A stretch of DNA of 64,000 nt from an uncultured Hormoscilla sp. (GCA_963921275.4 OZ001293.3:1024001-1088000), one strand, 5' to 3'. Positions 3,477 through 61,634 are shown, counted from the first letter of the stretch. The notes: generated by a model not told the origin, from the letters alone. Numbers and translations are program-made.

Positions 3477-3480
3477 CAGC

Positions 3481-3927: not shown

Positions 3928-4032
3928 CGCTCATGTCCTCGTCACATCTTCTTGAGTATACCACGTTTTCCGATCGCACGATTAGGGTTAATCATTGTTG
4001 CTGTTCTCAAGGACACCAATCAGCGCTTAACC

Positions 4033-6789
<2,757 letters not shown>

Positions 6790-32183: not shown

Positions 32184-32959
32184 ATGAAGGGACTAGAAGA
32201 AACCTATTTGTTTTTACCAGACTTTCAATGGGATCTTTCCGGCCAGTTGCTGGGGCCATTATTAGAACCGGCGGCCCATCATCAGGGAACTGGCAGTGGT
32301 GGGGTGGTAGAAGATGAGTTGATGATACGGGAAACTGCTGCTCCGAGAAAATTAGATAAAATAGAGCGTCCCATTGGCGGCTTCAGTTCTGAGCCATTGC
32401 TGTCGGAGGAATTTGAAGAAAATTTAGCGAGCGCCAGACAGACCTCATAACAGGAAAAAAGGTCCGGCAAGTGCCGGTCAGACCTCGTGCAGAGGTTCTG
32501 CAAGTATCTAATGAGAAAGGGGGAATTGACGGACAGAATTATACTTTAGAAGTTAGCGCCCCTTCGATGTCTCCTGGGAGCAATATTCGTACTACCCAGG
32601 AGACATCGCCACCCAATCGATCGCCCCTATTTAGCTCGTCGCCGGTGGTTGAGGCCAGAGTCAATACAGCATATAGTTACATACCCACAGTTGTAGACCC
32701 TGATGGCGACTTCTTGACTATAAGTTTGGTTGATGGACCGGAGGGAATGGCGGTCAACCCCGATACGTTTGAGGTAACTTGGACGCCAACAAGCGACCAG
32801 TTGGGGATTGGTGATGTCACCCTGAGGGTAACAGATGGACGGGGTGGGACGGCAGAGCAACAATTTTTGGTTATGGCACTCATTGAAGCAGGAAATGCAC
32901 CGCCGACGATTGTATCGTCACCGAAAACGACGGTTGATCGAGGTACTGACTATGTATAG
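32184..32959 (+). pseudogene. 5' exon of the giant Ig/Calx-beta/RHS gene (frame broken near 32450)
   Basis: 32497-32959 is paralogous to 40112-40530 and continues at 37069. Confidence 0.85.
32562..32606 (+). repeat. 45-bp hairpin element, in frame
   Basis: Absent from the paralogous linker at 40171-40190. Confidence 0.93.
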
Positions 32960-43000: not shown

Positions 43001-46000
43001 CTAACCTACCTCCGGCAATTACGTCAGTGCCGATCTACGGTGCGGCGGCGGGAGAGGTTTATTCCTATATGCTTGAGGCGACGGACCCCGAGGGTGAAAG
43101 CTTGACCTATCAATTACTTTCGGGACCGCCAGGGATGAGTCTTAGCGAGACGGGTTTGTTGTCTTGGGAACCCACAGTAGGGGATGTGGGATTGTACGAT
43201 ATCCACCTGGGTGTTGTTGACCCCAAGGGGTTAGGTGGGGCGCAGCAATTTGCTCTCACTGTACGGTCAAATAACGCTCCTAATATTGTTTCAGCACCGG
43301 TGATAACGGCGACACCAGGACTGCTTTATTCCTATCCGGTATTGGCGGTGGATGCAGATAACGATCTGTTGAGTTACAGGTTAGTTAATGGTCCTACGGA
43401 TGCGACAATAGATGCAGCGGGGATTATTAGTTGGATGCCCCGATCGGGTTCTTCTGGCGACGAAGAGTTTTCCGTGAGGGTAACGGATACTTTTGGTGCA
43501 GCTTCTACGCAAAGTTTTACGGTTTCTTTGCAGGGTGACGATACTCCTCCAGAGGTAACCCTATTGCAGAGTTTCAATTTTGTCTATACGGGACAGTCCC
43601 AGACTTTGTGGACTTCTGCGACTGATGATGTGGGGGTAGAAACTCTGGACTTGAGGATAGATGGCGAATTTGTTGCTTTGTCTCCTGATGGGGTGGCGAC
43701 GGTTAGTTTTGATAACCCGGGGTTATATGAGGCGATCGCCACGGCCACGGATGCGGCAGGAAATTCGGCGTCGGCGTCAGCTACCATAGAGGTGTTGGGT
43801 AAAAGTGACGGGTCATCTCCAGTAATAGAACTCGACCCTCTACCGGACGATCTGGTGACCAATGTTATTGAGTTGACGGGTACGATCTCTGACGATAATT
43901 TGGCAGAGTACAGGTTTGAGGTGGCGCCAGTTGGCAGTAATGATTTCGTAACGATATTCACGGGAACTGAAAAGGTAACAGATGGGGTGTTAGGAGAGTT
44001 TGACTCGACTTTATTGCAGAATGATTCTTATACCCTGCGGGTGATAGCAACGGATACTTCTGGAGAGAGTTCTCTTGTTTCCGAAACAGTTGATGTGGGT
44101 GGTGACTTGAAGTTGGGCAATTTCCAACTTAGTTTTACTGACCTGGAGGTGCCAGTTTCGGGCATTCCTATTAGCGTGACCCGCACTTATGATAGTCTGG
44201 GGGTGGGAACGCAAGATGATTTTGGCCCGGGTTGGCGTCTGGAGTTCCGGGATACAGAGCTGCGCACTTCTTTGGGACGGGATGAAATTTATGAGACTGT
44301 TGGCATTCGTTCAAAAGCTTTTACTGATAACACGCGGGTATACGTTACTCTACCTGGTGGGAAGCGGGAAACTTTTACTTTCTCTCCGACGCCCGATCGC
44401 CTGAGTCGGTACGTGACCAGTCCTAATGGCGAGGGCGGTTTGTTCCACCCGGCGTTTACGGCCCAAGATGGTTCCAACAATACTCTGACTGTTAAGGATG
44501 TGTTCCTGACTCGCAACCCTAATGGCGAATATGTGGCCTTGAGTGGCACTCCCTATAACTCGGAAGATTCTTTCTTTGGCGGTTCCTATACTCTTACTAC
44601 TAAGAAAGGTATTGTTTATGAGATCGATGCTACAACCGGTGACTTGCAGACGGTGACCGATCGCAATGGCAATACTCTCATTTATACTGATGAAGGGATC
44701 TCTAGCGATACTGGGGTAGAGGTTATTTTTGAACGGGATGCGCAAGGGAGGATCTCTAGCGTTATTGACCCGGCTGGTGAGAAGATTGTCTACTCCTACG
44801 ATGCCGTTACTGGAAACCTGGTCGGGGTGCGCGATCGGGCCAACAATACTACTACATTTGACTATGAAGCAGAAGAACGTCCCCATTACTTGACGGGAAT
44901 AAACGATCCTCTGGGACGGGAAGCGGTGCGCAACGAGTATGATGAGTCCGGGCGTCTGAAGCGGATCCTGGATGTGAATGGGGAAGCAGTTGAGTTAGAG
45001 TACGATCGGGATAATTATACTCAGACAGTTAAGGATGTGTTTGGAAATTCCACGACCTACGTGTATGATGAGAGGGGGAACGTTCTCACGGAAGTAGATC
45101 CGGTAGGGTTGGTGATCAAACGGACCTATGATGATGACAATAATATGCTGACTGAGACCATCATTACTGATGAAAGCGGTCCGGAAGGGTACACCACCAC
45201 CTACAGTTATGACGGAAATGGAAACTTGCTTTCCACGACCGCTCCTTTAGGAGACACCACTTTCAAGACTTATGACAGTAATAATAACCTGCTTTCAACA
45301 ACAGATTCTCTAGGCAACACCACAAGCTCCACCTACGACAGTCGTGGTAACAAGACTGCCGTTACATACCCTGATGGCTCGGTGGCGACGTTTAGTTACG
45401 ATCGCGCTGGCAATCTGACTGCCATTACTGATGGTGGAACTCTGATGGTCAGCTCTGAGTATGATAACGCTGGTCGCGTAATTCGCCAGGTAGATGCAAA
45501 CGGCGAAGAGACAGCGTTTACCTACGACGCAAATGGTAACCGTCTAACAGAGACAAGGACAGTAGAGGGGCGCACGCTCACCAGTACCCTTACCTACGAT
45601 CGCTCTGGACGGATGACCTCCTACACGGACTTTGGTGGTAATGTATCGAGTTTTGAGTACAATGCTGCTGGAAATCGGATTGCGTCCACAGACGGACTCG
45701 GTCGCCGTACCGAATATCGCTACAACGAAAGCGGAGCACTTGTAGAGACGATTTTCCCTGACGACACGCCAGAGGACATGTCCGATAATCCCAGAACTCG
45801 CATTGAGTACGATGCTGCTGGACGGGAAAAAGCTCGCATTGACCAGCTAGGACGTCGCACAGAATTTATTACGACCCAGTCGGACAGCCGATCTCCACAG
45901 TATTTCCCGACGACACGCCGGACGATCCGCTCGATAATCCCCGCACCCGAACTGAATATAGTCTAGCTGGCGACGTAGTTGCCCAGATTGACGAGCTGGG

Positions 46001-46010
46001 CAACCGAACG
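37069..46010 (+). pseudogene. Giant surface protein: 6 Calx-beta repeats, many putative Ig repeats, YD/RHS repeats; 3' truncated
   Basis: 2938-aa ORF; DY...SGTLTFNPG repeats, DPDGD.LTY repeats, YD repeats; no RHS-core end or toxin tip. Confidence 0.9.
37891..39900 (+). repeat. Six tandem 336-bp Calx-beta coding repeats
   Basis: ATTGAAGA at 37897, 38233, 38569, 38905, 39241 and 39577. Confidence 0.93.
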
Positions 46011-46644
46011 GACTCTCCAGATTTCTTTGACTGAAAACTTGCAACGGAAAGACCTCAACCCTGTAGAGGAAACAGAAGGAATTTTATCGTTATTATCGAT
46101 TAGACTAGGTTGCTCTGTGGAGGCGGTTGTTTCTATCCTTTATAAACTCCAAAACAAAGTCAAAAAAAAAGTTACGGCTGAGCTTGATGATGCTTCTTTA
46201 GAAGCAGTAACGAATGTTTTTCAAGAATTAGGGTTGATGAGTTGGGAGTCTTTTATCAGCAATCGCCTCCCCTTGCTCAATTTACCCCTTGACATCTTAG
46301 AAGTAATACGTCAAGGTAAAGTATCTTACACTAAAGCTAAAGCGATCGCGTCCCTAAAAGACCAAGAAGCAAGAAGCAAGCTATTGTTTCTTGCTATTGA
46401 TGAAAAATTATCGTTAGCAGCAATCAAAAAAAAAATATCCCAACTAAAGACAAAACAAAAAACAACATCCCCTAAGATTCAAATCAAGGAGATTAGTCGC
46501 CGATTGAACCAAGCTCAGCTCTGGAAAAAAGACCAGAAGCGATGGGAGCGAGTGCAGAGTTATCTGAATAAAATCGAAGCTATATTAACCGAAGGGAAAA
46601 ATCCTCATCCAGAAGATGTCGTTGGTACTGAATCGGATTATTAG
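46011..46644 (+). pseudogene. ParB/Spo0J-family protein lacking its N-terminus
   Basis: LTENLQRKDLNPVEE motif begins right after the junction with RHS sequence. Confidence 0.85.
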
Positions 46645-46983: not shown

Positions 46984-49023
46984 TTGACATCAGAGATGCT
47001 ACCAGAAGTACAAAAGGATCACTGGCCTAGATGGCCAGAAGTAGACCGCGATACATTCGATGCGGTCAACGCCAGTCTATACACTAGGCGCTGGGCGCTC
47101 GCTAGCGCTCCTAATCGAGGCGGCAGCAGCATCGACCGCGCCGAAGCTCAACTCGCAGCCTTATTTGGACGCGCTTTTGGCATTACAACTTGCAATGGTT
47201 CCGCTGCCATTGTCATTGCCCTACAAGCTTTGGGCATTGGGGCGGGCGATCGCGTCTTAGTCACCGCTCTAACCTGGGTAGGCTGTGCTACTGCCATCCT
47301 GCGTGTCGGGGCAGTGCCAGTGTTCGCTGACTCTGGAGACAATACGCAGCTAATGGCAATTTCCGAGTCTCAGTGCGCCCAGTGGGGGAAAATTAATGCC
47401 ATCCTGGCAGTCCACCTCTATGCCTCGCAACTGGAGATCGAAACTTGGCGGCAAGCCTTCCCTGGCGTGCCCATTATCGAAGACTGTTCCCACTGCCAAG
47501 GGGCTCTTGACCCTACAGGGCGTCCCTTGGGCTCCAGGGGAGAAATTGCTATTTGTAGCTTGCAAGGCAGTAAAATTATCACTTGCGGTGAAGGCGGGGC
47601 AGCATTGACAGACAATCCCGAATTAGCCCAGCGCCTAGCCGCCTTGCGTGCTGACTCGCGGGTGCGCCCCCAGGAATTTAGTCTCTGGCGAGAGGTAGAT
47701 TTAGAACCATCCCCCCTGGTACACGGCGCTAACTTTGCCCTCTTAGAGATTGCCGCCGGACTATTGCTAGATCAATTACAACGGTTTCCAGAGCAGGCTA
47801 AAAGGCGAGCGCAAGGTCTAGAACATTTTCGGTCTGCCTCGCAAAAATTGGGATTGGAAGTAATTGGCGATCGACCCAGCTGGCAATCAGGATCTTTTTA
47901 TGGTGTCATGGTTTGGCTAGGAGAAAATTTCTTTCAAAAGACCAACAGAGAAGACTGGCTGCGCCAAGTAAAGCAGAATTGCCGCATTGCCCTGTCTCCG
48001 GTATATCCGCCTATCCCCCAGTCGCCCTTGTATCGCCCGGCGGTCATGAAGCAGTATGCTAACCTAGCAACAGCTAATTTTGACCTGAATCATGCTAAGA
48101 AATGGCATGACAGTGGATTAGTAATCCCCCATTGGGCGTTCTTAGCTGCCCCTGCTACCCTAGTAAATTTAGCCGAAACTTTAGATGCCCTGAGAAACAA
48201 TAAAACTCCATCAGCGGCAGTACAGTCGCAGACACCTACCTCCACTAACTACCCAGAAATCGCTGTAGTAATTCTCACTAACGGTAAGCGTCCAACTTTA
48301 CCGCTAGCGCTAGCCAGCGTTGCGGCCCAAGATTATCCTGGTAGCGTGAAAGTGCTGATTCTCAAAGATGAGACAGACAGCAGTCAAAAAGTCCCTATTG
48401 ATTATTCTTCTAGCTTCCCTGCGGCTAAAGAAATTAGCATCCAAACCAAAGAAGTATGGCAGGATTGCCCGCTTGTAGCCAGAATAGCTCGGTTGCGGAA
48501 TTTGGCCCTAGAGTTTGTTAGCAGCCCCCTAGTATGTTTCCTCGACGACGATAACACCTGGGAATCTCATCACTTATCGAGTTTGTGGCAAGTCATGGCA
48601 GCAGAGGGAGTGCCTGCCGCCCATAGCTGGCGGCGCTTGCTTAATCCAGACGGGACAAATTGGCAGGGCGATCGCTTTCCTTGGCTGCCTCCTGGCAAGA
48701 CCGAAAAACACCGCTACGCCATCTATCGAGAATGTGGTATGTTTAGTCCTGGCAGTAGTATAATCAAGGATACCGTCTCTTTGCTTGTAGGAACAGAAGA
48801 CTTCGGCATGGTAGATATGGGCGAGTGGCTGCTAGAGACAACTTTAATCCGGCAATTGCGATTTTATACCACCTACTCAAAGTCAGAAATCGCCAATATG
48901 TGTGGAGAAGATGACAAACTCTTAAACTGCTTGCGTCAGTTTGGTATTGACATCGCCTGCACCAAGCAACCAACCTTAATCTACCAACTCGGTGGAATGT
49001 CCAACACCTTTGCTAACCTATAG
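46984..49023 (+). CDS. DegT/DnrJ (inosose-type) aminotransferase fused to a GT2 glycosyltransferase
   Basis: WPRWP, IIEDCSH, SLQGSKIITCGEGG (PLP Lys); C-terminal domain ASVAAQDY...CFLDDDN...LGGMSN. Confidence 0.88.
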   Translation: MTSEMLPEVQKDHWPRWPEVDRDTFDAVNASLYTRRWALASAPNRGGSSIDRAEAQLAALFGRAFGITTCNGSAAIVIALQALGIGAGDRVLVTALTWVGCATAILRVGAVPVFADSGDNTQLMAISESQCAQWGKINAILAVHLYASQLEIETWRQAFPGVPIIEDCSHCQGALDPTGRPLGSRGEIAICSLQGSKIITCGEGGAALTDNPELAQRLAALRADSRVRPQEFSLWREVDLEPSPLVHGANFALLEIAAGLLLDQLQRFPEQAKRRAQGLEHFRSASQKLGLEVIGDRPSWQSGSFYGVMVWLGENFFQKTNREDWLRQVKQNCRIALSPVYPPIPQSPLYRPAVMKQYANLATANFDLNHAKKWHDSGLVIPHWAFLAAPATLVNLAETLDALRNNKTPSAAVQSQTPTSTNYPEIAVVILTNGKRPTLPLALASVAAQDYPGSVKVLILKDETDSSQKVPIDYSSSFPAAKEISIQTKEVWQDCPLVARIARLRNLALEFVSSPLVCFLDDDNTWESHHLSSLWQVMAAEGVPAAHSWRRLLNPDGTNWQGDRFPWLPPGKTEKHRYAIYRECGMFSPGSSIIKDTVSLLVGTEDFGMVDMGEWLLETTLIRQLRFYTTYSKSEIANMCGEDDKLLNCLRQFGIDIACTKQPTLIYQLGGMSNTFANL

Positions 49024-49046
49024 ATAGAAAGGAGCATTGCTAAATC

Positions 49047-50111
49047 ATGATTCGCGAACAAAATCGCTTGCTAAACCTAGACGAATACCGACAAGGCAAA
49101 ACCAACCTCAACAGCCGCCCTCAGTATCTAATTGTAGAGCTAACTCAAGGCTGCAATCTTTACTGTGATATGTGCCGACCTGAGGTAATAAGTACAAAAT
49201 CTCGCCTGATGTCGGCAGAGACATTTCAAAAAATTGCCTCAGAACTTTTTCCTACAGCCAAAATGATAGATTTGCGAGGTTGGGGAGAAAGTCTAATTCT
49301 GCCAAATATACGCGAATATATAGAAACAGCCGTTAGTTTTGACGTTGACATCAGGTTTGTCACTAACCTATCATTTGTGCGGGATGAAATTCTCGATTTG
49401 CTAGTGGAATATGGTTGCTATTTATCCATATCAGTAGATAGCCCCGATCCCGAAACCTTTGCTCGACTGCGACGGGGCGGCAATCTCGTAAAAGTAGAGC
49501 GTAATTTGCGCAAGCTAACAATAGCATATCGTGCTAAGTTTGGCTCTGCCGATCGCATCAACCTAACGACGACCGTACAAAAGCCAGCTTTAGCAACTCT
49601 ACCCAATCTCATCGACTTTGCCGCCAACCTTGGGATTGAGGAAATTCGCCTGTTTGGCGTTACGGTCCCCTGTGATTCGCCCCTAACACTGGACAAGCAA
49701 GAAGCAGAAATTGATGCTACCCTCGCTCAAATGAAAGAGCGCAGTAAATTGCACGGAGTTAAATTAATCGCAGGCACGAAATTGGGTTCTCTTCCCCACA
49801 AACATCCAGACGCTTCCCCTTGTTTTCATCCTTGGAGTTACGTTTATTTTGCTTATGATGGCTCCGTTGGCTTCTGCGATCACTTGATCGGCCCCGACGG
49901 ATCGGAGTATATCTTAGGTAATCTGAATAACTCTAGCTTTGAGGAAATTTGGAATGGAGAGGAGTGGCAAGTTTTGCGGCAAGAACACTTAACAACTCGT
50001 TCGGCTCATGCTCCTTATTTTGAAGAGTGTAGTTGGTGTTATAAGAATCGCTATGTGGATTTTGAGAACTTCTTTTTGCCAGAAGCTAAAGAAGAAATAT
50101 GCAGGCTTTGA
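49047..50111 (+). CDS. Radical SAM protein with a twitch/SPASM-type C-terminus (HygY-like)
   Basis: CNLYCDMC; DLRGWGES; CFHPW...GFCDH...ECSWC. Confidence 0.88.
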   Translation: MIREQNRLLNLDEYRQGKTNLNSRPQYLIVELTQGCNLYCDMCRPEVISTKSRLMSAETFQKIASELFPTAKMIDLRGWGESLILPNIREYIETAVSFDVDIRFVTNLSFVRDEILDLLVEYGCYLSISVDSPDPETFARLRRGGNLVKVERNLRKLTIAYRAKFGSADRINLTTTVQKPALATLPNLIDFAANLGIEEIRLFGVTVPCDSPLTLDKQEAEIDATLAQMKERSKLHGVKLIAGTKLGSLPHKHPDASPCFHPWSYVYFAYDGSVGFCDHLIGPDGSEYILGNLNNSSFEEIWNGEEWQVLRQEHLTTRSAHAPYFEECSWCYKNRYVDFENFFLPEAKEEICRL

Positions 50112-50842
50112 AATTTAATAATCTGGGGATGCCAACAAAAATGCCAAAAAGTGTTATTCCGCCTAGCCATCAAATAGCGCAGTCATTGATAGCCAAAATT
50201 TTCTCGCTCAGTCCCTATGACAAATTTGACTATCAATCTATTCCTCTAGACATGCAAGGGTGGGGTTCTACGGACTCAATTTTTGCACAATTGATTCAGA
50301 CAGTTCAGCCCAAGCTGATTGTTGAGGTTGGGACTTGGAAAGGCGCCTCAGCTATCCACATGGCGAATCTCTTGAAAGGAGAAAATATTGATGGGGCAAT
50401 TTTGTGTATTGATACCTGGTTGGGAGGGTTAGAACATCTGATTGATAAAGAAGATCCAGAATTAGGATTAAGCAAATTTCGCGAGCACGGATACCCTACT
50501 CTTTACTATCAGTTTTTAGCCAATGTGATGCATAGCGGATTGGAAAACTATATTGTTCCTCTGCCTACCACTAGCAAAATTGCTGCTAAATGGCTCGAAC
50601 ATTATCAAATTGTGCCTGATTTGATTTATATTGATGCCAGCCACGACCGAGATGATGTCTATGCAGATGTGGTTGCTTATTGGAAGTTGTTGAGTCCTGA
50701 TGGCGTCATGTTCGGAGATGATTGGTCGGAGGGTTGGAGTGGAGTAATTGAAGCAGTAAGTGAATTTGCAAAAGTGTATCAGCTTGAGGTAGGATTAGAT
50801 GGAGAGAAATGGTTTATAAAGAAGACAAAACAAGAAGTATGA
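50099..50842 (+). CDS. Class I SAM-dependent methyltransferase (Methyltransf_24-like)
   Basis: VEVGTWKGAS, CIDTW, IYIDASH, FGDD. Confidence 0.88.
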   Translation: MQALKFNNLGMPTKMPKSVIPPSHQIAQSLIAKIFSLSPYDKFDYQSIPLDMQGWGSTDSIFAQLIQTVQPKLIVEVGTWKGASAIHMANLLKGENIDGAILCIDTWLGGLEHLIDKEDPELGLSKFREHGYPTLYYQFLANVMHSGLENYIVPLPTTSKIAAKWLEHYQIVPDLIYIDASHDRDDVYADVVAYWKLLSPDGVMFGDDWSEGWSGVIEAVSEFAKVYQLEVGLDGEKWFIKKTKQEV

Positions 50843-50885
50843 AAACACAAGTTGGCAGGTATGATATTTAGAGGAAGATGGGAAA

Positions 50886-52274
50886 ATGACAAAAGACAAA
50901 GCTCCCTATTTATCGGTTATTATTCCAGTTCATAACAAGCAGGATTCTTTACGTCGGTTATTAGCAGGGCTCAAGGAGCAAGAACCTCCAGCATTAAATT
51001 ATGAAATTATTTTCATTGCCGATGCTTGTAGCGATGAAAGTTTGCCGATGCTAAAATCAGCGAAAAAGGAACAAAGCTTCCAAATTGTTGAAACAAATCC
51101 CGAACTGCGAGGCCCTAGCAATGCTCGCAATCTTGGTATTGAAACAGCGAAGGGGGCGCATTGTTTATTTATAGATGCAGATATATTACTTCCGGCAAAT
51201 TTTTTAAGGGTTGTCATTCACCATTGCCAAGAGTTTCCTGATACTGTATATTTGGCTCCTGTTTGTGGCAATTCAGGTTCTTTGTCTACTTGGCCTTTTT
51301 TAGTGCCAAATAGTCACTCAATAGAGAATTTAAGTAATAGGGAATTATTGCTGTGGGCAAAGGCACAAAAACCCCTGCAAGATTTAAGGGTAGCTTTTGT
51401 AGAAGCATCAGCAGGCTGGTTCGATCGCTTACCTGCGCCTTGGGTTTTTTCTTGGAGTAGCGTGATGGCAGTACGGCGATAAATACTGCTGAAAGTTGGA
51501 GGCTTTTATACGTCTTTTCGAGAAAAGGGATCGGAAGATTTAGAATTAGGCTATCGGTTGTACAAACTTGGCATCAGATTTCGGCTGATGCTAGATACCT
51601 ATGTGTTTCATTTGCCGCATAAGCGCGATCGGGACAAAGAAGAACGTACCGATAGGCTGCAAGAAAGGCAAATGCTTAACATGTATCCCACTCGCCAAAT
51701 GGAAGCTTTATGTGCATTTGATGGAGCCCACGCTAATGCTATGATTGAGTGCTTGCAAACTATCGATCGAGAAGCCGTCAATCAGATTAAAATGTACTGG
51801 GCAACGCCTTTTGACGGACATAAATTAGGTCTTCCAGACAAAATTCCTTTGGTAATGGGAACGATTGCTGATTGGATGGTTTCAGCTTGGAAACCTGATT
51901 ACACAGTCAATCCAGGTAGTGACTCAAACAACCAAAATCTGTCTTTGATTGGGCTAGCGCTGCCTTTTGACGATAAAACTTTTGCTAGTGCGATTTTAGT
52001 GGGGCTTTGGCAAATTTTGCCGGAACGCCTGAGTTGTAGAATTTTTCAAGAAACACTGCGGGTAGCAGATCGGGTGTTTTTACTTAAACATACTCAGATG
52101 CCTGGAGAGCTAATCCCCTGGCCTCTGGATGTATTAGCGATCCACGATACACCCTACTGGGAGCGTACCTGTGCTATTCGCCGCTCGTTCTTTGACTTCT
52201 CGCTCACAGCCTACGGTCAAGATGGTAGCGCCGAATTATTTCAGATTGAACTATCGAGCCACTGCCCACAATAA
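50886..52274 (+). pseudogene. GT2 glycosyltransferase with one in-frame TAA at 51480-51482
   Basis: SVIIPVHN, ARNLG, FIDAD; same frame resumes ILLKVGGF...GSEDLELGYRL. Confidence 0.85.
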
Positions 52275-52336
52275 ATTGATGCGGATTCAGGCTAAAGTAA
52301 GAAAAATATAATCCACAAATAATGTTATTTCACTAG

Positions 52337-52987
52337 AATGAACTCAAAAGCAGAGCAACCGTGGGCGAATTATGGAGCCAGCGCATTCAGTTGGTGCCAG
52401 GATGGCTCAATTCCTGGGAAGGTCGCAGATTAATGGATTTGGCTGAAGCGATGGCAGCAAAAGGACCTATCGTGGAAATTGGTATGTATTGGGGACGCTC
52501 TACTTTATGCTTGGCAGAAGGTGTTCGTCGCGCTGGAAAAGGACATATCTGGACAATCGATCTGTTTGAGGAAACTTATACCTTTGAAGGCTGTCCTTCT
52601 CCTCATCCTTCATTCGTGCAATCCCAACAAACTTTAGTAGACCACAAGGTGCAGGACTTGGTAACCATTGTTAATGGAGATTCGCGACTTCCAAGTACCA
52701 CAAAACGGACACCAGATGATATAGCTTTGCTATTTGTAGATGGGGATCATGTTTTTGATGCCCTCAACCAAGAGTGGAAGTTGTGGAAGCCTAAGTTAAG
52801 CAAAGATAGCGTCATAGTATTCCACGACTACGATAATGAATGTGTTGGGGACGGAGTGACTCGGTTCTGTGATGAGGTGCTCCGACCACAATTTTTACAA
52901 GTGGAAGTGTGCGATCGCTTCAAACGAGAACCAGGGGCTATCCCTGGTGGAATGTTTATTGCTAAATCTTTGCATGCAAAGATTTAG
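52337..52987 (+). CDS. Class I SAM-dependent methyltransferase (Methyltransf_24-like)
   Basis: VEIGMYWGRST, LFVDGDH, VFHDY; in-frame ATG at 52337. Confidence 0.85.
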   Translation, partial: NELKSRATVGELWSQRIQLVPGWLNSWEGRRLMDLAEAMAAKGPIVEIGMYWGRSTLCLAEGVRRAGKGHIWTIDLFEETYTFEGCPSPHPSFVQSQQTLVDHKVQDLVTIVNGDSRLPSTTKRTPDDIALLFVDGDHVFDALNQEWKLWKPKLSKDSVIVFHDYDNECVGDGVTRFCDEVLRPQFLQVEVCDRFKREPGAIPGGMFIAKSLHAKI

Positions 52988-53163
52988 CAACCTCCGTTAG
53001 GGACTTGTGTAGAAATAAAGTACCAGTCAAACCTGCTGTACTCTTGAAATTGCTTTACCGGCGTTGGTACATTAATAACCAGCAAGTCCCTTACTTCAAC
53101 TTCCTGGGATCGTGACCAGGTTTTAATGTCAACTGAACCAGTTTTAAATAGAAGGAGACAAAA

Positions 53164-54356
53164 ATGAACAGCAGCGAAAAAAATCGGGTAGGTGTTTGGA
53201 TTGTTGGCGGACGCGGTTCCATCGCTACGACAACTATATTAGGCAAATTTCTACTTCAAGATCGGAAAATAGAGCCTATTAGCCTGCTAACCTGTTCAGA
53301 AGATTTTCAGGATTTACCATTTTTGGATTGGCAAGACCTTACCTTTGGCGGCTGGGATATTCATTCCCATAGCTTGACTAAATCTTTAGAAGTGCTAATA
53401 GAAGATAATGTAGTCCCGTTAAAATTGCAGTTAGATGCAACTAACTACCTACAACAAGTAGATCCAAACATTGAGAATATCTTTCAGCTCTTGCCGTTAG
53501 AAGAAAAATTGCCCCCTAGCAAGCAAATACAGGGTTTGCGTCGATGTTTAGAGCGAGTTAAACAGGAGCAAAATTTAGAGCGGCTTATTGTGGTTGATTT
53601 GTCTTCTACTCAACCTGTGGCTGAAATTGAAGATAAATTATTTAGCTTTGCCGCCTGGGAAGCTTTACAGGTATTTCTAGAATCTACAAAGGATTCTATA
53701 CCTTGGAGCGTAATCTATGCTACGGCTGCCCTTTTAGAAAACTGCGCCTACATTAACTTTACTCCTAATATTGGCACTGAGTTACCAGCATTACAAGATT
53801 TGGCATTGCAGCGCCGACTACCCCATGCAGGTAAAGATGGGAAAACGGGGGAAACGCTCTTGAAAACTGTTTTAGCTCCTATGTTTCTGTATCGCCAAAT
53901 GAAGGTATTATCCTGGCAAAGCTACAATATGCTAGGTAACAGCGACGGGGCAATACTGTCCAATCCTAATAGTAAAAAAGCCAAAATCCGGTCCAAAGAT
54001 TCTTCCCTGCGAAAATTTTAACCAACAGTCCGGACCTTCACAGTCACATTGCCATTGATTACGTTCCTTCCTTAGGAGACTGGAAAACGGCAATTAATTT
54101 TGTGCATTTTGAAGGATTTTTAAATACACGGATGTCGTTTCAGTTTACTTGGTCAGGATGCGATACGATTTTAGCGGTACCCCTAGTGCTAGATTTAATT
54201 CGCTTTGTGGAACTAGCATGGCGTCAGGGGGAATTTGGCAAGCTCGATTACTTATGCCCCTATTTCAAATCCCCGATAGAGTATCCTGAAGCTGACTTTC
54301 GAGAACAAATCAGGACGCTGTTTGCTCATTTCCCTGGGGTCCAGAATAGTGAATGA
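53164..54356 (+). pseudogene. myo-Inositol-1-phosphate synthase, frameshifted near 54015
   Basis: GKDGKTGETLLK, NMLGNSDG; alternate frame continues DYVPSLGDWK...GCDTILAVPLVLDL. Confidence 0.88.
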
Positions 54357-54404
54357 GCGCCTGGAAGTCCGGATCAGAGTTTAATGCAGTTGCTATTTTG
54401 TCAT

Positions 54405-54612
54405 TAGACCTCTTGCAAAAGTAACAGGACTTACGCATAGACTCCTTCTGTAGGGTGCGCAGTGCACACCAGACGCTATATATAGCTATCAATCCTACAA
54501 TGTGCGTAAGTCCTAAGTAAGTTAAGCAATCAAAAGTGATGGTGTTACAGTCAAATCTGATCCCATTCCCTTTGCCCTTTGCCCCTTTCCCCAGACTTTT
54601 GCAAGAAGTCTA
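54405..54612. mobile_element. MITE with a second MITE nested inside (54427-54513)
   Basis: Outer IRs TAGACCTCTTGCAAAAGT/ACTTTTGCAAGAAGTCTA; inner AGGACTTACGCA/TGCGTAAGTCCT. Confidence 0.7.
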
Positions 54613-55764
54613 TTATGCTTCCACTATGTACACCGTCTGGCAATTTCTTTCGGATTCAACAAATCCTTCAAAAGCATCAAGATAGGGACGCCCAACCCGA
54701 ACATCTAGTTGATGCAGGTGATTTTGAGCAACTTTCCAAGGTTGAGATCGGCAAAATTGGTGAGCTAATGCTTCTTCGCTAGCAATTTTCAGCCTGGGGG
54801 GAGCATTTTTGCTTTGATGTAGTTCATAGCTTATGCCTGTCTTTGCCAGCATTACGGCAGCAAACCGGGCAGCACTAGGAGTAAACACCTTGGTATTAAT
54901 CCAAAGTCCGTCTGCACCTATCCAACCTGCTACTTGTTTAAGTGCTTTGAGTGCTGCGGGTGCTAATTGCTCGATGGTACGACGCCAGTAAGGATTTAAA
55001 TCAAAGCTATCAATTAGCAGTACTCGGCGACCAGCCAACTCGTCTCGCCCCACCACGCAGTGAATTTGACCCGCACAGCGAAAGTTAATATATATTTCTA
55101 AGCAAAAAATGCTTGGATCGAAAAGATAGAAAAACATAATATCAGAGTTATCGCACTTCGGTGCATGAAAAGCCGTGCAAATGTCAGAATAGTTGCCTTG
55201 AGCAAAATCGAGGCTGGGGCTGCGCGACCAAATGGAAAAAAATAAAGTCCGGTCGAGAATGCGTGGCAGCTGCTTTTTTACCGCACCTTGAGCATTTAAC
55301 CAAGCGCGGGGTTCTTCAGTCTGCAAAGCTTCTATAGCTTTCTCAACCAGTCCCGGTGTTACCCGCATCCCTTTTTGGGAAGCTGCCTTAATCTGGTTGA
55401 GGCAAAACTCAGACAGATTATGTACGCTCCCACTAACGTCCAAACACAGACTAGCAGGATAGACAAGACCTGTTTTAGCTGCAAAAGCCGCAAATTCTCC
55501 AGTGCGGCAGTAGTCTAGAATATTTGCTAACAGTGAGGAGTTTTGCGCTTCTAATTTCCAGAGTTGCAGCCACGCTGCATCGAGGTGATATCTTTTGGGG
55601 TTGGACATCCATTTCTCGGCAACTAGCTTAGTCAGATTATCAAAACCAAAGGCTTTGATGTGGTTGTACTCTTGCTTGTCCTCTAGGGAGCATATTTGGC
55701 ATAAGAGCGTGGCAAGGTGGTGAGCTGTTTGATTCGGCATTTCTATTGATTGCTGGTATTCCAT
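54613..55764 (-). CDS. Hypothetical protein (383 aa)
   Basis: Long ORF with no family recognised. Confidence 0.65.
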   Translation of the reverse strand: MEYQQSIEMPNQTAHHLATLLCQICSLEDKQEYNHIKAFGFDNLTKLVAEKWMSNPKRYHLDAAWLQLWKLEAQNSSLLANILDYCRTGEFAAFAAKTGLVYPASLCLDVSGSVHNLSEFCLNQIKAASQKGMRVTPGLVEKAIEALQTEEPRAWLNAQGAVKKQLPRILDRTLFFSIWSRSPSLDFAQGNYSDICTAFHAPKCDNSDIMFFYLFDPSIFCLEIYINFRCAGQIHCVVGRDELAGRRVLLIDSFDLNPYWRRTIEQLAPAALKALKQVAGWIGADGLWINTKVFTPSAARFAAVMLAKTGISYELHQSKNAPPRLKIASEEALAHQFCRSQPWKVAQNHLHQLDVRVGRPYLDAFEGFVESERNCQTVYIVEA

Positions 55765-56233
55765 TGCTATATCAATCCTAAATCATTTGTAAAATTTTCG
55801 CCACCTAAAAGGGTTGCCACGATTTGATCGGAAACCCGAATATGCAGTTTAGATGCGCGACAGCTTAGAAACTGATCGCTATATGTCTTAGTTAATGAGG
55901 CTTTCAGCGCTTGGCCAGTATGACGGTTTTCCCGATCTGACACAAGAGCGTTAGGATTGCTATAGTAGGTCAATCTCATATCTTGTACCTGTCGCAACAG
56001 GCCGCCTCTGGTTAAAATTGTCCGCTAAGAGCGCAAGTCCACAAAAGTTGACTAAACCCTTTCTATACAAGGCTTTCAGTCGGTTTTCAACCGACTTTAG
56101 CTATTAGCCGTGGGTTTAAACCCACGGCGGGCCAGGAGGCGTTCTTGAGAATGGTGCAAGATCTCAGTCAATGACAATTTGACAAGAGCGCTTCTAGATC
56201 GGTTAAGATTAATCTGTCCTTCGGCAAACTTTT

Positions 56234-56393
56234 CTAAGTAGTTGTGCAAAATTATTTTTATATTTCTGCGAGGGGGCGATCGTCCAGGAAAGTTATGGCT
56301 CTCAAGCTCTATCCCATAAGGATTTCAGAAAATTAACTTCTCGGAAATTGACGGTTGGCAAAAATATCAAAATAATTTTGCCTATGTACTTAG
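56234..56393. mobile_element. MITE-like element
   Basis: IRs CTAAGTAGTTGTGCAAAATTATTTT / AAAATAATTTTGCCTATGTACTTAG. Confidence 0.6.
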
Positions 56394-56445
56394 TAAGCCT
56401 TGTGACCGTTTTTATTTTACCACTCCTACATTTCCTTTTTCATTG

Positions 56446-58245
56446 ATGTACGACTTGATCAATCCCCAACTAACAAAAGGTTTCCTTACTACTTTTAAGT
56501 TTGCTTGGCGCTATTGGTCACAGCAGCCCTATTTAGTATTGCTGCTACTGGTATTAATGGCTTTTTATGCAATATTTGAGGTTTTAGTCCCAGTGATAAC
56601 TGGAAAGATAGTAGATAGTTTCACTAGCGCTACAGGGGACTGGCAAGCTATAGCATTGGTGCTAGCTTACCTGATTGGAGCCAGAATAATTGCCTACATT
56701 TTCCGCCAGTGCGCTGTTTTTATTTGGCATCACCAAGCCACGCAAATTATGGCAAAAATTGTTACCCACGCTTTTGATGTGGTACAGAGGATGAATACGA
56801 ACTGGCATACTAATAATTTTGCTGGCAGCACAGTGAGAAAAATTACGCGCGGTATGTGGGGTTTCGACCAATTTGGCGATACACTTTATCTAGCTATTTA
56901 CCCACATGTATTGGCAAATATTGCGGTTGCAGTTATTCTGTTTCAAAATGGTTGGGCGATTGGCATGCCGAGCGTACTTGGTTCGGTACTATTTCTCTAT
57001 GTCAGCGTTAAACTTTCCACAGATTATTTAGCGCCAGCTTTGGCGGAATCAAATCAACTTGACAGTCAAATTGGCGGGCTTTTATCTGATTCTATTACTT
57101 GTAATAGTGTGGTGAAGGCATTTGCCAGTGAAGAGAGGGAAAGAGAAAAATTAGTGGGCATTGCCGAACAATGGCGCGTTAAAACGAGGAAGGCTTGGTG
57201 GCGAATTGAAACGTTATTTTCTGTGCAAGTAACATTATTTATACTGATTGAAATTAGTTTGGCCGTCGTGTCTTTTTGGTCGTGGTTGCAAGGCTATTGT
57301 ACAGTAGGAGATATTGTAACAATTCTGGCAAGCTTTCAACTAGCTCAATCTCACATGAAAGAGCTTGGCAATGATATCCGTAACCTGCAACGTTCCATTA
57401 ATGATATGGAAGATATGATTGGCTTAGAAGAGATAGATGCAGAAATTCCTGAAGCTTCCGATGCATTGCCTTTAGAGGTAGAAGCAGGTGCTATTACTTT
57501 AGAGCGAGTAACTTTTGGCTATGAAAATCAAGAAAAGCCAATCTATCAACATTTTTCTTTATCTATTAAAAGCGGCGAAAAAATAGCTTTAGTGGGAGCT
57601 TTTGGCAGCGGCAAAAGCACTTTTATTAAGCTGATCCAACGGCTTTATGACGTCCAAGCAGGGACGATCTCTATTGATAATTACAACATCCGCCGCGTAA
57701 CTAAGCAAAGCTTGAGGAAGGCGATCGCTATGGTGCCTCAAGAACCTATCCTATTCCATCGCTCGATTCGAGAAAATATTGCCTATTGCAAACCCGACGC
57801 TACCCAGACAGAAATTGAAGATGCAGCGCGCCAAGCTTTTGCTCATGACTTTATTATGGGACTGTCAGAAGGGTACAATACAGAAGTTGGCGAAAGAGGA
57901 GTAAAGCTATCGGGCGGGGAGCGGCAACGGGTAGCAATTGCTCGGGCTATCTTGGCAGATTGTCCGATTCTGATTTTAGATGAAGCGACGAGCAGTTTAG
58001 ATTCTATTTCGGAAGCTTTAATTCAAAGGGCCCTGGCTAATTTGATGACAGGAAGAACAACAATTATTATTGCTCATCGACTTTCAACCATTAAAGCAGT
58101 TGACCGCATTCTGGTGTTTTCCCAAGGCAAGATTATTGAGGAAGGCAGTCATGAAATATTGCTGAGTCAAGTTGATAGCCACTATGGCATTCTCTATTCA
58201 CTTCAGTCTAAAGGTATGCTGCCCCTAGAAGGGGTATCAACTTAA
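56446..58245 (+). CDS. ABC exporter (fused TM domain + NBD)
   Basis: TM helices, GAFGSGKST, LSGGERQR, ILDEATSSLD, IAHRLST. Confidence 0.95.
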   Translation: MYDLINPQLTKGFLTTFKFAWRYWSQQPYLVLLLLVLMAFYAIFEVLVPVITGKIVDSFTSATGDWQAIALVLAYLIGARIIAYIFRQCAVFIWHHQATQIMAKIVTHAFDVVQRMNTNWHTNNFAGSTVRKITRGMWGFDQFGDTLYLAIYPHVLANIAVAVILFQNGWAIGMPSVLGSVLFLYVSVKLSTDYLAPALAESNQLDSQIGGLLSDSITCNSVVKAFASEEREREKLVGIAEQWRVKTRKAWWRIETLFSVQVTLFILIEISLAVVSFWSWLQGYCTVGDIVTILASFQLAQSHMKELGNDIRNLQRSINDMEDMIGLEEIDAEIPEASDALPLEVEAGAITLERVTFGYENQEKPIYQHFSLSIKSGEKIALVGAFGSGKSTFIKLIQRLYDVQAGTISIDNYNIRRVTKQSLRKAIAMVPQEPILFHRSIRENIAYCKPDATQTEIEDAARQAFAHDFIMGLSEGYNTEVGERGVKLSGGERQRVAIARAILADCPILILDEATSSLDSISEALIQRALANLMTGRTTIIIAHRLSTIKAVDRILVFSQGKIIEEGSHEILLSQVDSHYGILYSLQSKGMLPLEGVST

Positions 58246-58490: not shown

Positions 58491-59185
58491 ACCCACATTC
58501 CGCACGACAATTTGTAACATACTAAGTAATATGTAATGGTACGGTACGATTGCCATTGCACGACAATTTGTAATACGTAATATATTTGGCGATTTGGCAA
58601 ACACAAGGTAGAAATATTTATACGCATATGAGCTTTTCTGTTTGCCAAATCGCCAAGCGCTTGTAATCATATATACTACAAATAGTATATATGTAGGTTA
58701 CATAGGGCTTGCTGAAAAAGGCTACAGGGCGAATCTAGACGCCACACAGCTTACTACACCGTCGGTCTATCACTCGGCTCCAAGCAGTAACCCCCCGGAA
58801 ATGCTCCGATTTTGGGGACTCGGAAAGCAAAACCTTGCACAATGCAAGCAAAAAAAACGCCAAAACCCTTACATTACATAGTCAGATTTACAGCTTTCTG
58901 ATGCAATCCCTACATAATCTGCAAATCTGCGCTTCCTGTCAGGGGTACAGAGCTCTTACATAGAAAACGTTAGTGTCAGTCTTTTTTTTGTCAATCCCTT
59001 CTGCTGGACCGACGCTCTAGTCTTCACGCGATCGAGGGGCTTACCCATGCCAGTTGAGAAAAGCGCAGTTCCTGACCGTTCGGAGTATAGAATGAAATCA
59101 TCATGTGTTCGGAGCTACATCAGTCCTAAGCCTCGACAAAACCGGCGAACAATACAGCATACTGGTAAATCCGGAACCTTATTTA

Positions 59186-59257
59186 TGGGTCGCCCGGGAT
59201 TTGAACCCGGAACTAATCGGTTAAAAGCCGAGTACTCTACCATTGAGTTAGCGACCC
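59186..59257 (-). tRNA. tRNA-Lys(UUU)
   Basis: GGGTCGC/GCGACCC acceptor stem; anticodon loop CTTTTAA; TTCAAAT T-loop. Confidence 0.96.
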
Positions 59258-59313: not shown

Positions 59314-60179
59314 TTACAAAAATTTTGCCGCGATCCGTACAAAAGTTTCCATCTGGGCCCCCGGTTCCAGGGTGAGCAGGTTTTCGCCGGTATTCGTTGC
59401 GGGGACCGGTCCAGGGTTCGAGGCAATAGAAATCTTTGCCCTTAACTGTCCAAAAAACAAGGGTAGAGTAGGTATCGTCCCAGGTCACGATCAGTTGTAA
59501 CTGCCGGCTATGGTCTGTCACGCTAGCGGACTTGCTAGTGAGATCCCGAAAGGCCACATCAATTTCATCCTGGTTGAAGTCAAAGACACCGTTGAAGGGA
59601 TGGAACTCTTGGCTGCCCTTTTCTTGGTACTGGTCTGCTGGGATGTCAATGTCCAGCTGGCTTTTATCATCAACTAGGAAGTAGGGATGAAATCCTGCCG
59701 AAAAGGGCATCTCTGAGGCCGATCTATTTTCGTAACGTTGCTTTATTTCCAGGCTGTTCCCCTTTAGCTGATAAGTGAAGCAGACGTTAAAGTCAAAGGG
59801 ATAAACAGTGCGAGTCTGTGAGTTGCTGTCTAAAACGAGGGTGAGAGAAGCTAGGTCATTCGTGACTTTATCTGTTACTTTCCAAGGCAGTTCGCGGGTG
59901 AAACCATGTTGTTTGAGAGTATATTCTTTCCCCAGATGGATGTAGGTGTTGTCGGGTAAGTTACCACAGATGGAGGAATAAAATCGGAATACCTCCCCGA
60001 ACACTTAAGTCGGAGTTTTTTAACCGTTCGCTGTCCAGATAGAATATTTCCTGACCTTGCAGTTGCCAGTGGGTGATTATTCCACCTAGTTCTGGCACTA
60101 CCTCCAGTCGAGACAGTGCGGTTTTGTCAGAAAGAATGTAGGTTTTGTATTGTTCGTGTTTTACTGCGATCTCATACAT
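59314..60179 (-). pseudogene. Aldose 1-epimerase family protein, two frameshifts
   Basis: RGGIPILF / ICGNLP, QHGF, GFHPYF, CLEPW; breaks near 59975 and 59395. Confidence 0.85.
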
Positions 60180-60213
60180 GGCGTTTTCTCTCGTTGGGGA
60201 CTCGTGGTTTAAT

Positions 60214-60605
60214 ATAACTCAAGTTGCTACCTATTAAAATTGCTACGTCCCAGACAGCCATTTTTTGCAAATATATCCGAAAAAATGCCATTTTGGGGTA
60301 AGTCACAAGGCATTTTTTGCTGATTTTGGTGTTGAGGTTCTATAGGTAGCAACTTAGGTTAATATAGAAGTTGCTCTTATTAGTGTGATATGTGGTCAAT
60401 CGCTGAAACCCATATGCTGTATGCGATTTACCGTGTACCGTCTATATGATATCGTACCACATCAATCTGAGAAACGCTATAACAATACTTCGGACACTTT
60501 TTCAATGGCAACGGTATAATGAGGGTTTCGGACTCCGATATCGCCCCACTCACCAACGCTAGAATGCTGGTTTCAGCCGTTCTCCTAAAATTGTCCGGAC
60601 TATTG
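60214..60605. mobile_element. Three adjacent MITE-like elements
   Basis: IR pairs AAGTTGCTACCTAT/ATAGGTAGCAACTT; TATAG...GCTATA; CAATACTTCGGAC/GTCCGGACTATTG. Confidence 0.6.
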
Positions 60606-61029
60606 TTAATAATGTACCAGTTATTTCGCTACTCCTTCGAGAAATTGATGGTATAGCTGATATTGTATTTCTGCGCAAGTCCATTGTGATATTAACATGA
60701 ACGTTCGCAATAAGCTCATAAAACCAACATTCTGCAGTACAAAGTATATTGCGTAATGATTACAAATACTTGGTGATTTTGCGAACCATAAACTTGATAA
60801 GCTGTCGCGCATCTAAACTGCATATTCGGGCTGTCGATCAAATCGTGGCAACCTTCGACCCATAAGCGCTTCAGCCAAAATGGCTATTTTTTACTATGCA
60901 GTTTAAATGCATCAGTATAAATATTTATATGTTATAATTTCCAAATAACCAGATATATTACGCATTACCAAATGTATTACAATGGCAATCCAACCCAGGA
61001 ATTCCGTCAGGCCGAACTGATGCCAATAT

Positions 61030-61359
61030 TGATTTTTTGGCACTATAGAAGCCTATAAAAATGCTCGTCAAGTCGCTGCTCATGCTCTTTTGACACCGGT
61101 TGAGCGTTCAAGTGGCTCTTCGGTACTTGGGTTACCCAGGCTGTCACGAACGGGTAATGCCCGGGCTCGGTTGCGTAATGCTTTGTATTGGCCTGCTATT
61201 GTCGCCATGCGACATAATCCCTTGCTTAAAGCGTTCAGTGAGCGGTTGCTGAGTCGGGGCAAGGTAAAGATGCTCTTCTTTGGAGCGGTGATGCGTAAGT
61301 TGTTACATTTGGCTTTTGGAATTTTCAAATCCCAAAAGCCCTTTGACCCCAATTTTTGA
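61030..61359 (+). pseudogene. IS110-family transposase, C-terminal fragment
   Basis: GNARARLRNALYWPA...AVMRKLLHLAFG. Confidence 0.85.
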
Positions 61360-61560
61360 TCGACAACCCCTTGACAGGTAACACAGTATCTACAGAGCAA
61401 AAGTTGTCCGTTGTAGGTCACGCCGAGCCGATCGCCCCTTATCCAAGCTAGCGCGTAGCGCACTGCGTATTAAGATACTTCCAGAATACGCGATCGATGG
61501 TCACCATCTTTCCTAATGTCAAGCCTACAGATGCACCCGATGTACAGATGCACCCGTTGT

Positions 61561-61626
61561 CAATTCTCAATTCTCAATTCTCAATTCTCCATTCTCAATT
61601 CTCCATTTCCAATTCTCCATTCTCAA
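61561..61626. repeat. Heptamer tandem repeat (CAATTCT; STRR-type)
   Basis: About nine imperfect units directly after the TpsB gene. Confidence 0.85.
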
Positions 61627-61634
61627 GGATATAA

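Follow-up and report, generated by a model that had tools for sequence, protein, structure and literature searches.

Two routes to aminoglycosides, through myo-inositol and through 2-deoxy-scyllo-inosose (DOI), supply the logic of the gene cluster described here (PMC13707489; PMC12904256; PMC11405602). The original prediction made for the DNA studied here took the class to be known mainly from actinomycetes and Bacillus. The class is not restricted to these groups, given that an orphan cluster is on record in Rickettsia buchneri (PMC8770908) and that a survey of 196 cyanobacterial genomes lists the antiSMASH aminoglycoside/aminocyclitol class, without detail (PMC7761380). Here we describe a block of eight genes within a 64,000-nt stretch of DNA (OZ001293.3:1024001-1088000, hereafter the window), which includes an aminotransferase-glycosyltransferase (GT) fusion, a radical S-adenosylmethionine (SAM) enzyme and a synthase for myo-inositol-1-phosphate (MIPS). 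As far as we know, no aminoglycoside has been isolated from a cyanobacterium, and we found no account of a fusion-radical SAM-MIPS cassette in a literature search that left subscription journals mostly outside. We put the probability at roughly 70% that the block is an acquired, decaying cluster whose predicted product is a methylated aminocyclitol glycoside built on myo-inositol, a small aminoglycoside-like pseudo-di- or trisaccharide of the streptomycin/hygromycin type. Comparison loci are denoted L0xx or L1xx and compared genomes G###, G000 being the window's own genome.

The gene block and the predicted pathway

The open reading frame (ORF) list and Pfam confirmed the block, its coordinates (Table 1) and its domain labels; all eight genes are real, and each label is backed by Pfam except that of the gene termed orfX. 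The motifs WPRWP, SLQGSKIITCGEGG (aminotransferase), LRGWGES and GFCDHLIG, on which the original prediction had leaned, are all present in window proteins. The first gene matched both the Pfam DegT aminotransferase (E 2e-56) and GT2 (E 1e-7) families, with domain limits at about 46996-48216 for the aminotransferase and 48247-49020 for the HygF-like GT2; ATG at 46996 is the likelier start. Among 55 PDB matches to the aminotransferase, the best were glutamine:2-deoxy-scyllo-inosose aminotransferases, i.e., BtrR (2c7t, E 2e-49) and RbmB (5w70/5w71), with ArnB (E 3e-28) 21 orders of magnitude behind 2c7t, and all NCBIfam sugar aminotransferase models scored far below cut-off. In a tree of 21 rows, comprising the window enzyme, 13 proteins from cyclitol clusters and seven sugar-type DegT proteins, the window enzyme grouped with the 13 cyclitol-context enzymes and was split from the sugar-type proteins at 100/99. 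Both DegT paralogues of the window genome fell in the sugar-type group, to which the long branches were confined, and five fusion proteins formed their own clade (100/100). These comparisons support a BtrR-type cyclitol enzyme distinct from nucleoside diphosphate (NDP)-sugar aminotransferases, bearing out the predicted BtrR/StsC-type inosose aminotransferase; the grouping with lipopolysaccharide/exopolysaccharide (EPS) sugar enzymes that would have spoken against it was not seen for this protein.

Plasmid homologues of the aminotransferase were consistent with this assignment. Five of 18 plasmid matches were inspected, ten from Bradyrhizobium and three others being left out, and four of these, which are among the best-scoring, all lay inside cyclitol clusters. 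The homologue accompanies a DOI synthase in Burkholderia FERM BP-3421 (L108) and in the butirosin-like cluster of Sodalis praecaptivus pHS1 (L113), and a scyllo-inosamine amidinotransferase in Mycobacterium sp. SMC-8 (L114). In the non-ribosomal peptide synthetase-like/carbamoyl hybrid cluster of Streptomyces sp. BB1-1-1 (L110) it occurs with a carbamoyltransferase, Gfo dehydrogenases and a protein homologous to the fused GT. The fifth plasmid, that of Streptomyces sp. SAT1 (L109), has a hygromycin B-type gene content; its Hyg gene labels were assigned from gene content and anchored on APH(7'')-Ia at 94.9%. The fused GT domain is 35% identical over 253 residues (E 2e-44) to the HygF-position GT of L109, in line with the resemblance to HygF first proposed, and a weaker homologue (30%) occurs in Streptomyces Mg1 in a non-cyclitol locus. 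The block holds an inosose aminotransferase, identified by sequence only, an aminocyclitol-related GT and, in MIPS, a cyclitol-forming cyclase, frameshifted here and whole in three of four other fusion loci.

The steps of the pathway are predicted from these enzyme families, which, like the lesions, the island status and the recurrence described below, can be read from the DNA itself. MIPS would cyclise glucose-6-phosphate, and a host monophosphatase would then release myo-inositol. The cluster MIPS is broken; a second MIPS with an open frame lies elsewhere in the genome (C1:802532-803674) and is unrelated to it (no tblastn match), and the host genome holds four inositol monophosphatase-family matches outside the cluster. 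A ring hydroxyl would be oxidised to the inosose, most likely by the radical SAM enzyme acting like BtrN, or else by a host Gfo/Idh enzyme, and the BtrR-type domain would transaminate the inosose to an inosamine, possibly twice to give a streptamine-like ring. The fused HygF-like GT would add a hexose from an NDP-sugar, the second GT, dead here, would once have added a further sugar, and two O-methyltransferase-like enzymes would methylate the product. orfX may acylate the product, for tailoring or self-protection, and the ATP-binding cassette (ABC) protein may export it. For methyltransferase 2, PDB 6g7d (E 3e-8) and O-methyltransferase entries were matched, and a 59% homologue occurs in cluster L019; methyltransferase 1 had no PDB match at E 0.01 and no close homologue in the loci compared, with one weak match in G596. 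The methyltransferase-like look of the second GT's C-terminus was discarded, having Pfam support in none of five sequences. At G000:C1:799885-803674, fragments of group II introns and a split gene resembling a glycosyltransferase come ahead of the second MIPS.

Two of the eight genes are broken. In the second GT, an in-frame TAA at 51480-51482 precedes the conserved GSED motif, whereas the whole 450-469-aa homologues (L020, L025, L026, L041) read through; in MIPS the frame changes near 54012, and an intact homologue aligns gap-free on both sides. Both sites are spanned by Logan short-read contigs without differing letters (three runs, one study), and the GT stop also appears in one contig of 151 bases belonging to a second study. 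The three runs are possibly the source of the assembly; they still rule out long-read error. Because short-read contigs carry both sites unchanged, the lesions are real and not assembly errors. Programmed frameshifting at the MIPS site was likewise rejected: the A4T4 run does not, by eye, fit the canonical slippery heptamer, and the presence of a second, independent lesion favours decay. The strain's output could at most be a truncated methylated mono-glycoside, or nothing.

Comparison with congeners shows the block to be an island peculiar to this strain, next to tRNA-Lys and apparently horizontally acquired. The host, with 0.69 HIP1 sites (GCGATCGC) per kb, is taken on that basis to be a cyanobacterium. 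The tRNA-Lys and the aldose epimerase gene galM (from ~59,110-59,180) are kept at 87-95% in all four same-genus genomes, and between 46.7 and 58.3 kb the matches listed for these four contain nothing but dispersed repeats. In 13 genomes of the same family the radical SAM enzyme matched nothing closely (best E 1e-7), and in 12 of that family the ABC gene gave no match at E 1e-90. GC at third codon positions is 0.37-0.41, i.e., the 7th-12th percentile, for the genes running from the radical SAM enzyme to the ABC exporter; overall codon scores are ordinary. A search of the genome for an att-like copy of the tRNA-Lys end came up empty, leaving site-specific integration a possibility.

Table 1. Features of the locus (window coordinates) and positions of three related cyanobacterial clusters.
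Feature	Position	Strand	Remarks
ParB-HTH gene remnant	45979..46644	+	Pfam HTH_ParB, E 6e-12; left flank of cluster; abuts cut end of the 2938-aa Calx-beta/YD-repeat gene
BtrR-type cyclitol (inosose) pyridoxal phosphate-dependent (PLP) aminotransferase + HygF-like GT2 fusion	46984..49023	+	open frame
Radical SAM enzyme with SPASM	49047..50111	+	Pfam Radical_SAM + SPASM; open frame; uncharacterised family
Methyltransferase 1	50099..50842	+	Pfam Methyltransf_24; weak CmcI/rhamnosyl O-methyltransferase match; open frame
Second GT2	50886..52274	+	~460 aa when whole, with unassigned C-terminal domain; pseudogene
Methyltransferase 2	52361..52987	+	Methyltransf_24; O-methyltransferase-like; open frame
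MIPS, two frames	53164..54356	+	Pfam; pseudogene
orfX	54613..55764	-	383 aa; without Pfam family; may transfer acyl groups or confer self-resistance
Dispersed genomic repeats between orfX and ABC gene	55800..56400	.	112 blastn matches in genome; short-read contig ends/joints here
ABC exporter, membrane + ATPase domain	56443..58245	+	Pfam; inside island, pathway membership uncertain
tRNA-Lys(TTT)	59186..59257	-	3' end marks start of similarity to congeners, right border of island
DOI-synthase-type cluster	G382:C122		L105, L106
DOI-synthase-type cluster	G490:C3:4575121-4589160		L122, L124
DOI-synthase-type cluster	G678:C90		L123, L125

The radical SAM enzyme and related clusters

The radical SAM enzyme belongs to a family of 377 clusters at E 1e-30, with sources named as Cyanobacteriota, Acidobacteriaceae, Bryobacteraceae, Acidisoma and Lentimicrobium; a scan of genome contigs with a single protein query yielded only seven distant loci (22-30% identity). 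It carries a CxxxCxxC motif (C36/C40/C43) and auxiliary cysteines C259, C277, C328 and C331, and these seven, with no further cysteine, are invariant in 84 of 84 sequences. The auxiliary pattern agrees with a single, fully ligated auxiliary cluster like that of BtrN, for which four cysteines serve as ligands (PMC6231123). The best PDB match of the family profile was again BtrN (E 2e-9), with both clusters aligned and three auxiliary cysteines matching BtrN cysteines; the single sequence had no PDB match. According to the same source, function is not predictable from similarity in BtrN's twitch subfamily (PMC6231123).

HygY is the radical SAM epimerase of hygromycin B, and the original prediction had likened the window enzyme to it. 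This identity fails: the HygY-position protein of L109 matched the window enzyme at E 0.12 and detected relatives at 34-43% in L022, L026, L048 and G596. Since HygY-like and window-type proteins occur together in three of these loci (L022, L026, L048), the two presumably do different jobs.

Gene content is more telling than fold for a possible role as the missing cyclitol dehydrogenase. A nicotinamide adenine dinucleotide (NAD)-dependent cyclitol dehydrogenase was seen neither in the window nor in the fusion loci L020, L026 and L029, nor in four clusters with a DOI synthase (L108, G382, G490, G678), although the window-type radical SAM family is present throughout. The Pfam scans behind this statement covered 63 + 52 of 201 picked ORFs, leaving out BLAST-assigned, short and most flanking ORFs; for G490 and G678 the annotation came chiefly from BLAST, and L020 is cut at its end. 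Conversely, the four plasmid cyclitol clusters with a HygE, Gfo or BtrN-like gene lack the family at E 1e-20. Weighed with the counter-evidence given below, these patterns make a BtrN-like role in cyclitol oxidation an evenly balanced proposition.

The cassette recurs in four metagenomic loci (L020, L025, L026, L029; 33-58% GC), all with the aminotransferase-GT fusion and the radical SAM gene. MIPS is whole in three of them (L020, L026, L029), as is the second GT (L020, L025, L026), and two (L020, L026) have a carbamoyltransferase. A HEAT-repeat RlmKL-like methyltransferase lies inside or beside the same two clusters (L020:8397-9962; L026:11102-12625) and might confer self-resistance by methylating rRNA; its family has no name. 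The cluster L048 combines MIPS, the GT, GT4, PIG-L and B12 radical SAM genes with an Rmt/FmrO-like 16S rRNA methyltransferase, the last below its NCBIfam cut-off. Among 400 genomes of the host's order searched, the HygF-like GT was found in four and the radical SAM enzyme in eight, none with the window's exact gene arrangement. Three of these genomes, G382, G490 and G678, from three cyanobacterial families, hold an apparently whole DOI-synthase-type cluster with a GT, an aminotransferase, a DOI-synthase-like cyclase, heptose-type genes, the radical SAM enzyme, a methyltransferase, PIG-L and GT4. Their cyclase is 33-35% identical to the HygC-position protein, with no NCBIfam model over cut-off; the G382 and G490 clusters are 87-94% identical and G678 61-74%, and in content all three resemble the Burkholderia plasmid cluster L108. 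A parB-like gene precedes the HygF-like GT in G490, as in the window. The hybrid aminocyclitol pathway originally proposed therefore stands in its BtrR-type aminotransferase, its HygF-like GT and the ties of such clusters to cyclitol synthases and, once (L048), to an Rmt/FmrO-like gene; its HygY component does not.

The surroundings of several loci were also recorded. The whole MIPS-fusion-radical SAM-HygY-like-carbamoyltransferase cluster L026 (L146; G689) sits on a 42-kb contig classed as viral by IMG/VR and adjoins a gene that weakly resembles a phage tail sheath; none of the portal and terminase families looked for turned up on that contig. In L029, a defence-system-like SIR2-like and HerA pair (3259-6215) lies directly upstream of a whole homologous cluster, and L022 adjoins an integrase. 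Because aminoglycosides can block phage infection (PMC9239200), the neighbours of L029 and L026 deserve mention, though nothing beyond that. G596:C214 (L121) has a HygF-like GT (41%) and a HygY-like radical SAM enzyme (40%) in a GT-rich setting, with no aminotransferase detected in 35 kb.

Counter-evidence and alternative readings

Several observations weigh against the proposed pathway. The cluster has no canonical resistance gene (APH, AAC or 16S rRNA methyltransferase), and the Pfam scan found no inositol dehydrogenase, monophosphatase, APH (aminoglycoside phosphotransferase) or FmrO-type gene in it, as the original prediction had stated; the host genome has one APH-family match far from the cluster, and an FmrO search of that genome gave no match, its control likewise matching nothing. 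No cyclitol aminotransferase is in sight of the HygF-like GTs of L021, L041 and G596. In L019 the radical SAM enzyme occurs together with a Gfo dehydrogenase, and L025 has an aldo-keto reductase close by. Distant homologues of the radical SAM enzyme (37% or less) stand in glycan-type loci, some fused to GTs, and its closest sequenced cyanobacterial relatives (65-68%, four genomes) lie in a polyketide synthase (PKS)-PhyH-EamA-Rieske cluster without a HygF-like GT, although these carry W79D in the pocket. Fold comparison of the radical SAM model (pLDDT 96) ranked BtrN only 30th (Z 17.9) and so does not single it out; because BlsE (Z 23.5), SkfB (23.4), SuiB and DesII (within 22-23.5) rank above it, the fold leaves the role undecided. 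Since the radical SAM enzyme was itself the query that brought up most comparison loci, the co-occurrence counts are biased. Finally, the closest plasmid matches of the ABC protein (56%) adjoin EPS-type GT loci in Gloeothece, and it is for this reason the least secure pathway member.

Beside this, in G136 (L102), G446 (L139), G547 (L140) and G599 (L141) a conserved PKS-PhyH-radical SAM-EamA-Rieske cluster was observed in which DLRGDGE replaces DLRGWGE; next come, in the G136 copy, ectoine-synthase-like, GT2, adenosine 5'-phosphosulfate kinase, MATE and sulfotransferase genes.

Within the aminocyclitol reading, a serious contender, at somewhat under even odds, is that the radical SAM enzyme tailors the attached sugar by oxidation, epimerisation or dehydration, as HygY, NeoN and BlsE do, while host enzymes oxidise inositol. 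It directly adjoins the HygF-like GT in L019, L021, L022 and L046, seven of 57 GT homologues have the same contig size as some radical SAM homologue, where 0.3 would be expected, and GT-radical SAM fusions exist; BlsE and DesII are among its top structural matches, and the host genome has five Gfo/Idh/MocA matches outside the cluster. The HygY-like proteins beside this family in L022, L026 and L048 argue against a simple HygY replacement, however, and the DOI-synthase clusters would then have no second-step dehydrogenase. NeoN uses Cys249 as hydrogen donor (PMC10991966), and no conserved extra cysteine of this kind is present in the 84 sequences.

The main, though unlikely, alternative to the aminocyclitol glycoside is that the same enzymes make an amino-inositol unit of a surface glycan, glycolipid or protein glycan, assembled and exported by the GTs, O-methyltransferases and MsbA-like ABC protein. 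Distant radical SAM homologues do occur in GT, sulfotransferase and TPR loci and on Brachyspira plasmids, L021 and G596 place the HygF-like GT inside GT-rich loci, the second GT scored best with EPS-type GT2 models (all below cut-off), Methyltransf_24 includes rhamnosyl O-methyltransferases, and relatives of the ABC protein flank GT loci. Against this, flippase, polymerase, chain-length and priming transferase genes were absent from the window cluster and the four fusion loci as scanned, and no NDP-sugar locus gene (nucleotidyltransferase, dehydratase, flippase or polymerase) was among 12 proteins scanned. The cluster is, moreover, a sporadic island, and its relatives include paromamine-type GT4 and PIG-L modules with a DOI synthase and an Rmt/FmrO-like gene.

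That the block is a dead mosaic of unrelated cargo genes that never formed a coherent pathway, as the two pseudogenes, the ParB remnant, the cut YD-repeat gene, the surrounding repeats and the isolated methyltransferase 1 might suggest, is very improbable, being largely refuted by the recurrence of fusion, radical SAM enzyme, second GT and MIPS together, as whole frames, in metagenomic loci of 33-58% GC, and by the six frames still open here.

orfX, flanking features and comparison with known systems

The original prediction called the convergent gene orfX unknown. It indeed has no Pfam, NCBIfam or PHROG family; a GNAT fold, however, had been missed. The AlphaFold model (pLDDT 76.5, 13-row alignment) consists of a helical N-terminal part and a GNAT-fold C-terminal part (~residues 170-335). 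Foldseek placed the aminoglycoside acetyltransferase (AAC) AAC(3)-Ia in its first row (E 6.9e-4), tied with protein N-terminal acetyltransferases, and a wide VIA-align search returned 50 rows that were GNAT-type or uncharacterised by title, with modest Z of 6.5-7.8. Like the GNAT AACs (AAC(3)-Ia, AAC(6')-Iy, AAC(2')-Ia), orfX has the GNAT fold in its C-terminal part. It differs from them in its tie with N-terminal acetyltransferases at Z of at most 7.8, in an extra 170-residue N-terminal part and in showing, by eye, no evident RxxGxG loop, the coenzyme A-binding motif of GNAT proteins. From the modelled fold, orfX is a candidate acyltransferase or self-resistance protein. It is rare, with four matches at E 1e-30 among 1.84 billion representatives and none in 400 genomes of the phylum or in viral contigs, and its look-alikes in the Atlas are without names. 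Three of 12 orfX homologues have a longest contig of exactly the same size as that of a protein among 119 radical SAM homologues, where density, roughly estimated, would predict ~0.06, and one such pair comprises a 68% orfX relative and an 80% radical SAM relative. These shared sizes, of contigs themselves unread, suggest that orfX travels with the radical SAM gene as part of the cassette. A link between PcfJ and GNAT proteins was considered for orfX and dropped when no relevant literature was found.

Upstream of the block, the 2938-aa Calx-beta/Ig/YD-repeat protein (37150-45966) ends inside YD repeats, apparently after a frameshift near 45870. A fragment similar to its gene lies at 32471-32959, a group II intron reverse transcriptase (YADD) at 34395-35849 and, downstream, an IS110-like transposase fragment with multi-copy repeats at 60000-61650. 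A perfect 32-base palindrome (52959-52990) spans the stop codon of methyltransferase 2, and short-read contigs break there. Scans for promoters and terminators gave about what chance would (27 vs 21.6 and 14 vs 12.9 expected).

A wider, tentative and on balance doubtful proposal is that the window's cluster belongs to a family of aminoglycoside-type pathways that has gone unrecognised, spans phyla and extends beyond actinomycetes to cyanobacteria, among others. In it the new radical SAM family would replace NAD-dependent cyclitol dehydrogenases, the fusion would channel the ring to its first sugar and a new GNAT would protect the producer. The radical SAM enzyme may then oxidise inositol or inosamine, or dehydrate inositol to deoxy-inosose without a DOI synthase, and some copies, lying beside defence or phage-like genes, may be chemical weapons against phages or competitors. 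If the aminocyclitol reading is right, the radical SAM family of at least 377 clusters without assigned reaction, the aminotransferase-GT fusion and the divergent GNAT would be testable enzymes, and the apparently whole clusters (four metagenomic, three in cyanobacterial genomes) may yield new aminocyclitol scaffolds and possibly a new resistance enzyme family. Since two of its genes are broken, the window copy is the weakest member to work on; the valuable part is the wider family with its unassigned radical SAM enzyme and GNAT, and G382, G490 and G678 are better targets. Intact relatives in other bacteria, cyanobacteria among them, point to unexplored aminoglycoside-like chemistry.

Among described systems, the hygromycin B cluster (L109) shares with the window a HygS-like cyclitol aminotransferase (31%), a HygF-like GT2 (35%), a radical SAM gene directly behind the GT and an ABC exporter. 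The window differs in having MIPS in place of a DOI synthase, in the fusion of aminotransferase and GT, in a radical SAM enzyme that is not HygY, and in lacking HygE, HygM, HygD, HygX, the heptose genes and an APH homologue. In the butirosin system, BtrR is the solved structure that the aminotransferase matches best, and among solved structures the radical SAM profile has its top match in BtrN, with its one four-cysteine auxiliary site. The window's radical SAM enzyme, however, exceeds the solved BtrN chain by some 85 residues and is not detected by the Sodalis BtrN-like protein, and the window has no DOI synthase, BtrM/BtrD or 4-amino-2-hydroxybutyrate genes. With streptomycin and spectinomycin, compared by gene content, the cluster shares a MIPS-derived inositol core and a PLP aminotransferase (PMC13707489); it lacks their NAD-dependent inositol dehydrogenase, monophosphatase, kinase, amidinotransferase, thymidine diphosphate-sugar genes and phosphotransferase resistance. 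The orphan cluster of Rickettsia buchneri follows the DOI-synthase route, with dehydrogenases and a kinase of its own, and its gene table includes no radical SAM enzyme, MIPS or fusion; like the window, it represents aminoglycoside-type genes horizontally acquired outside actinomycetes and Bacillus (PMC8770908).

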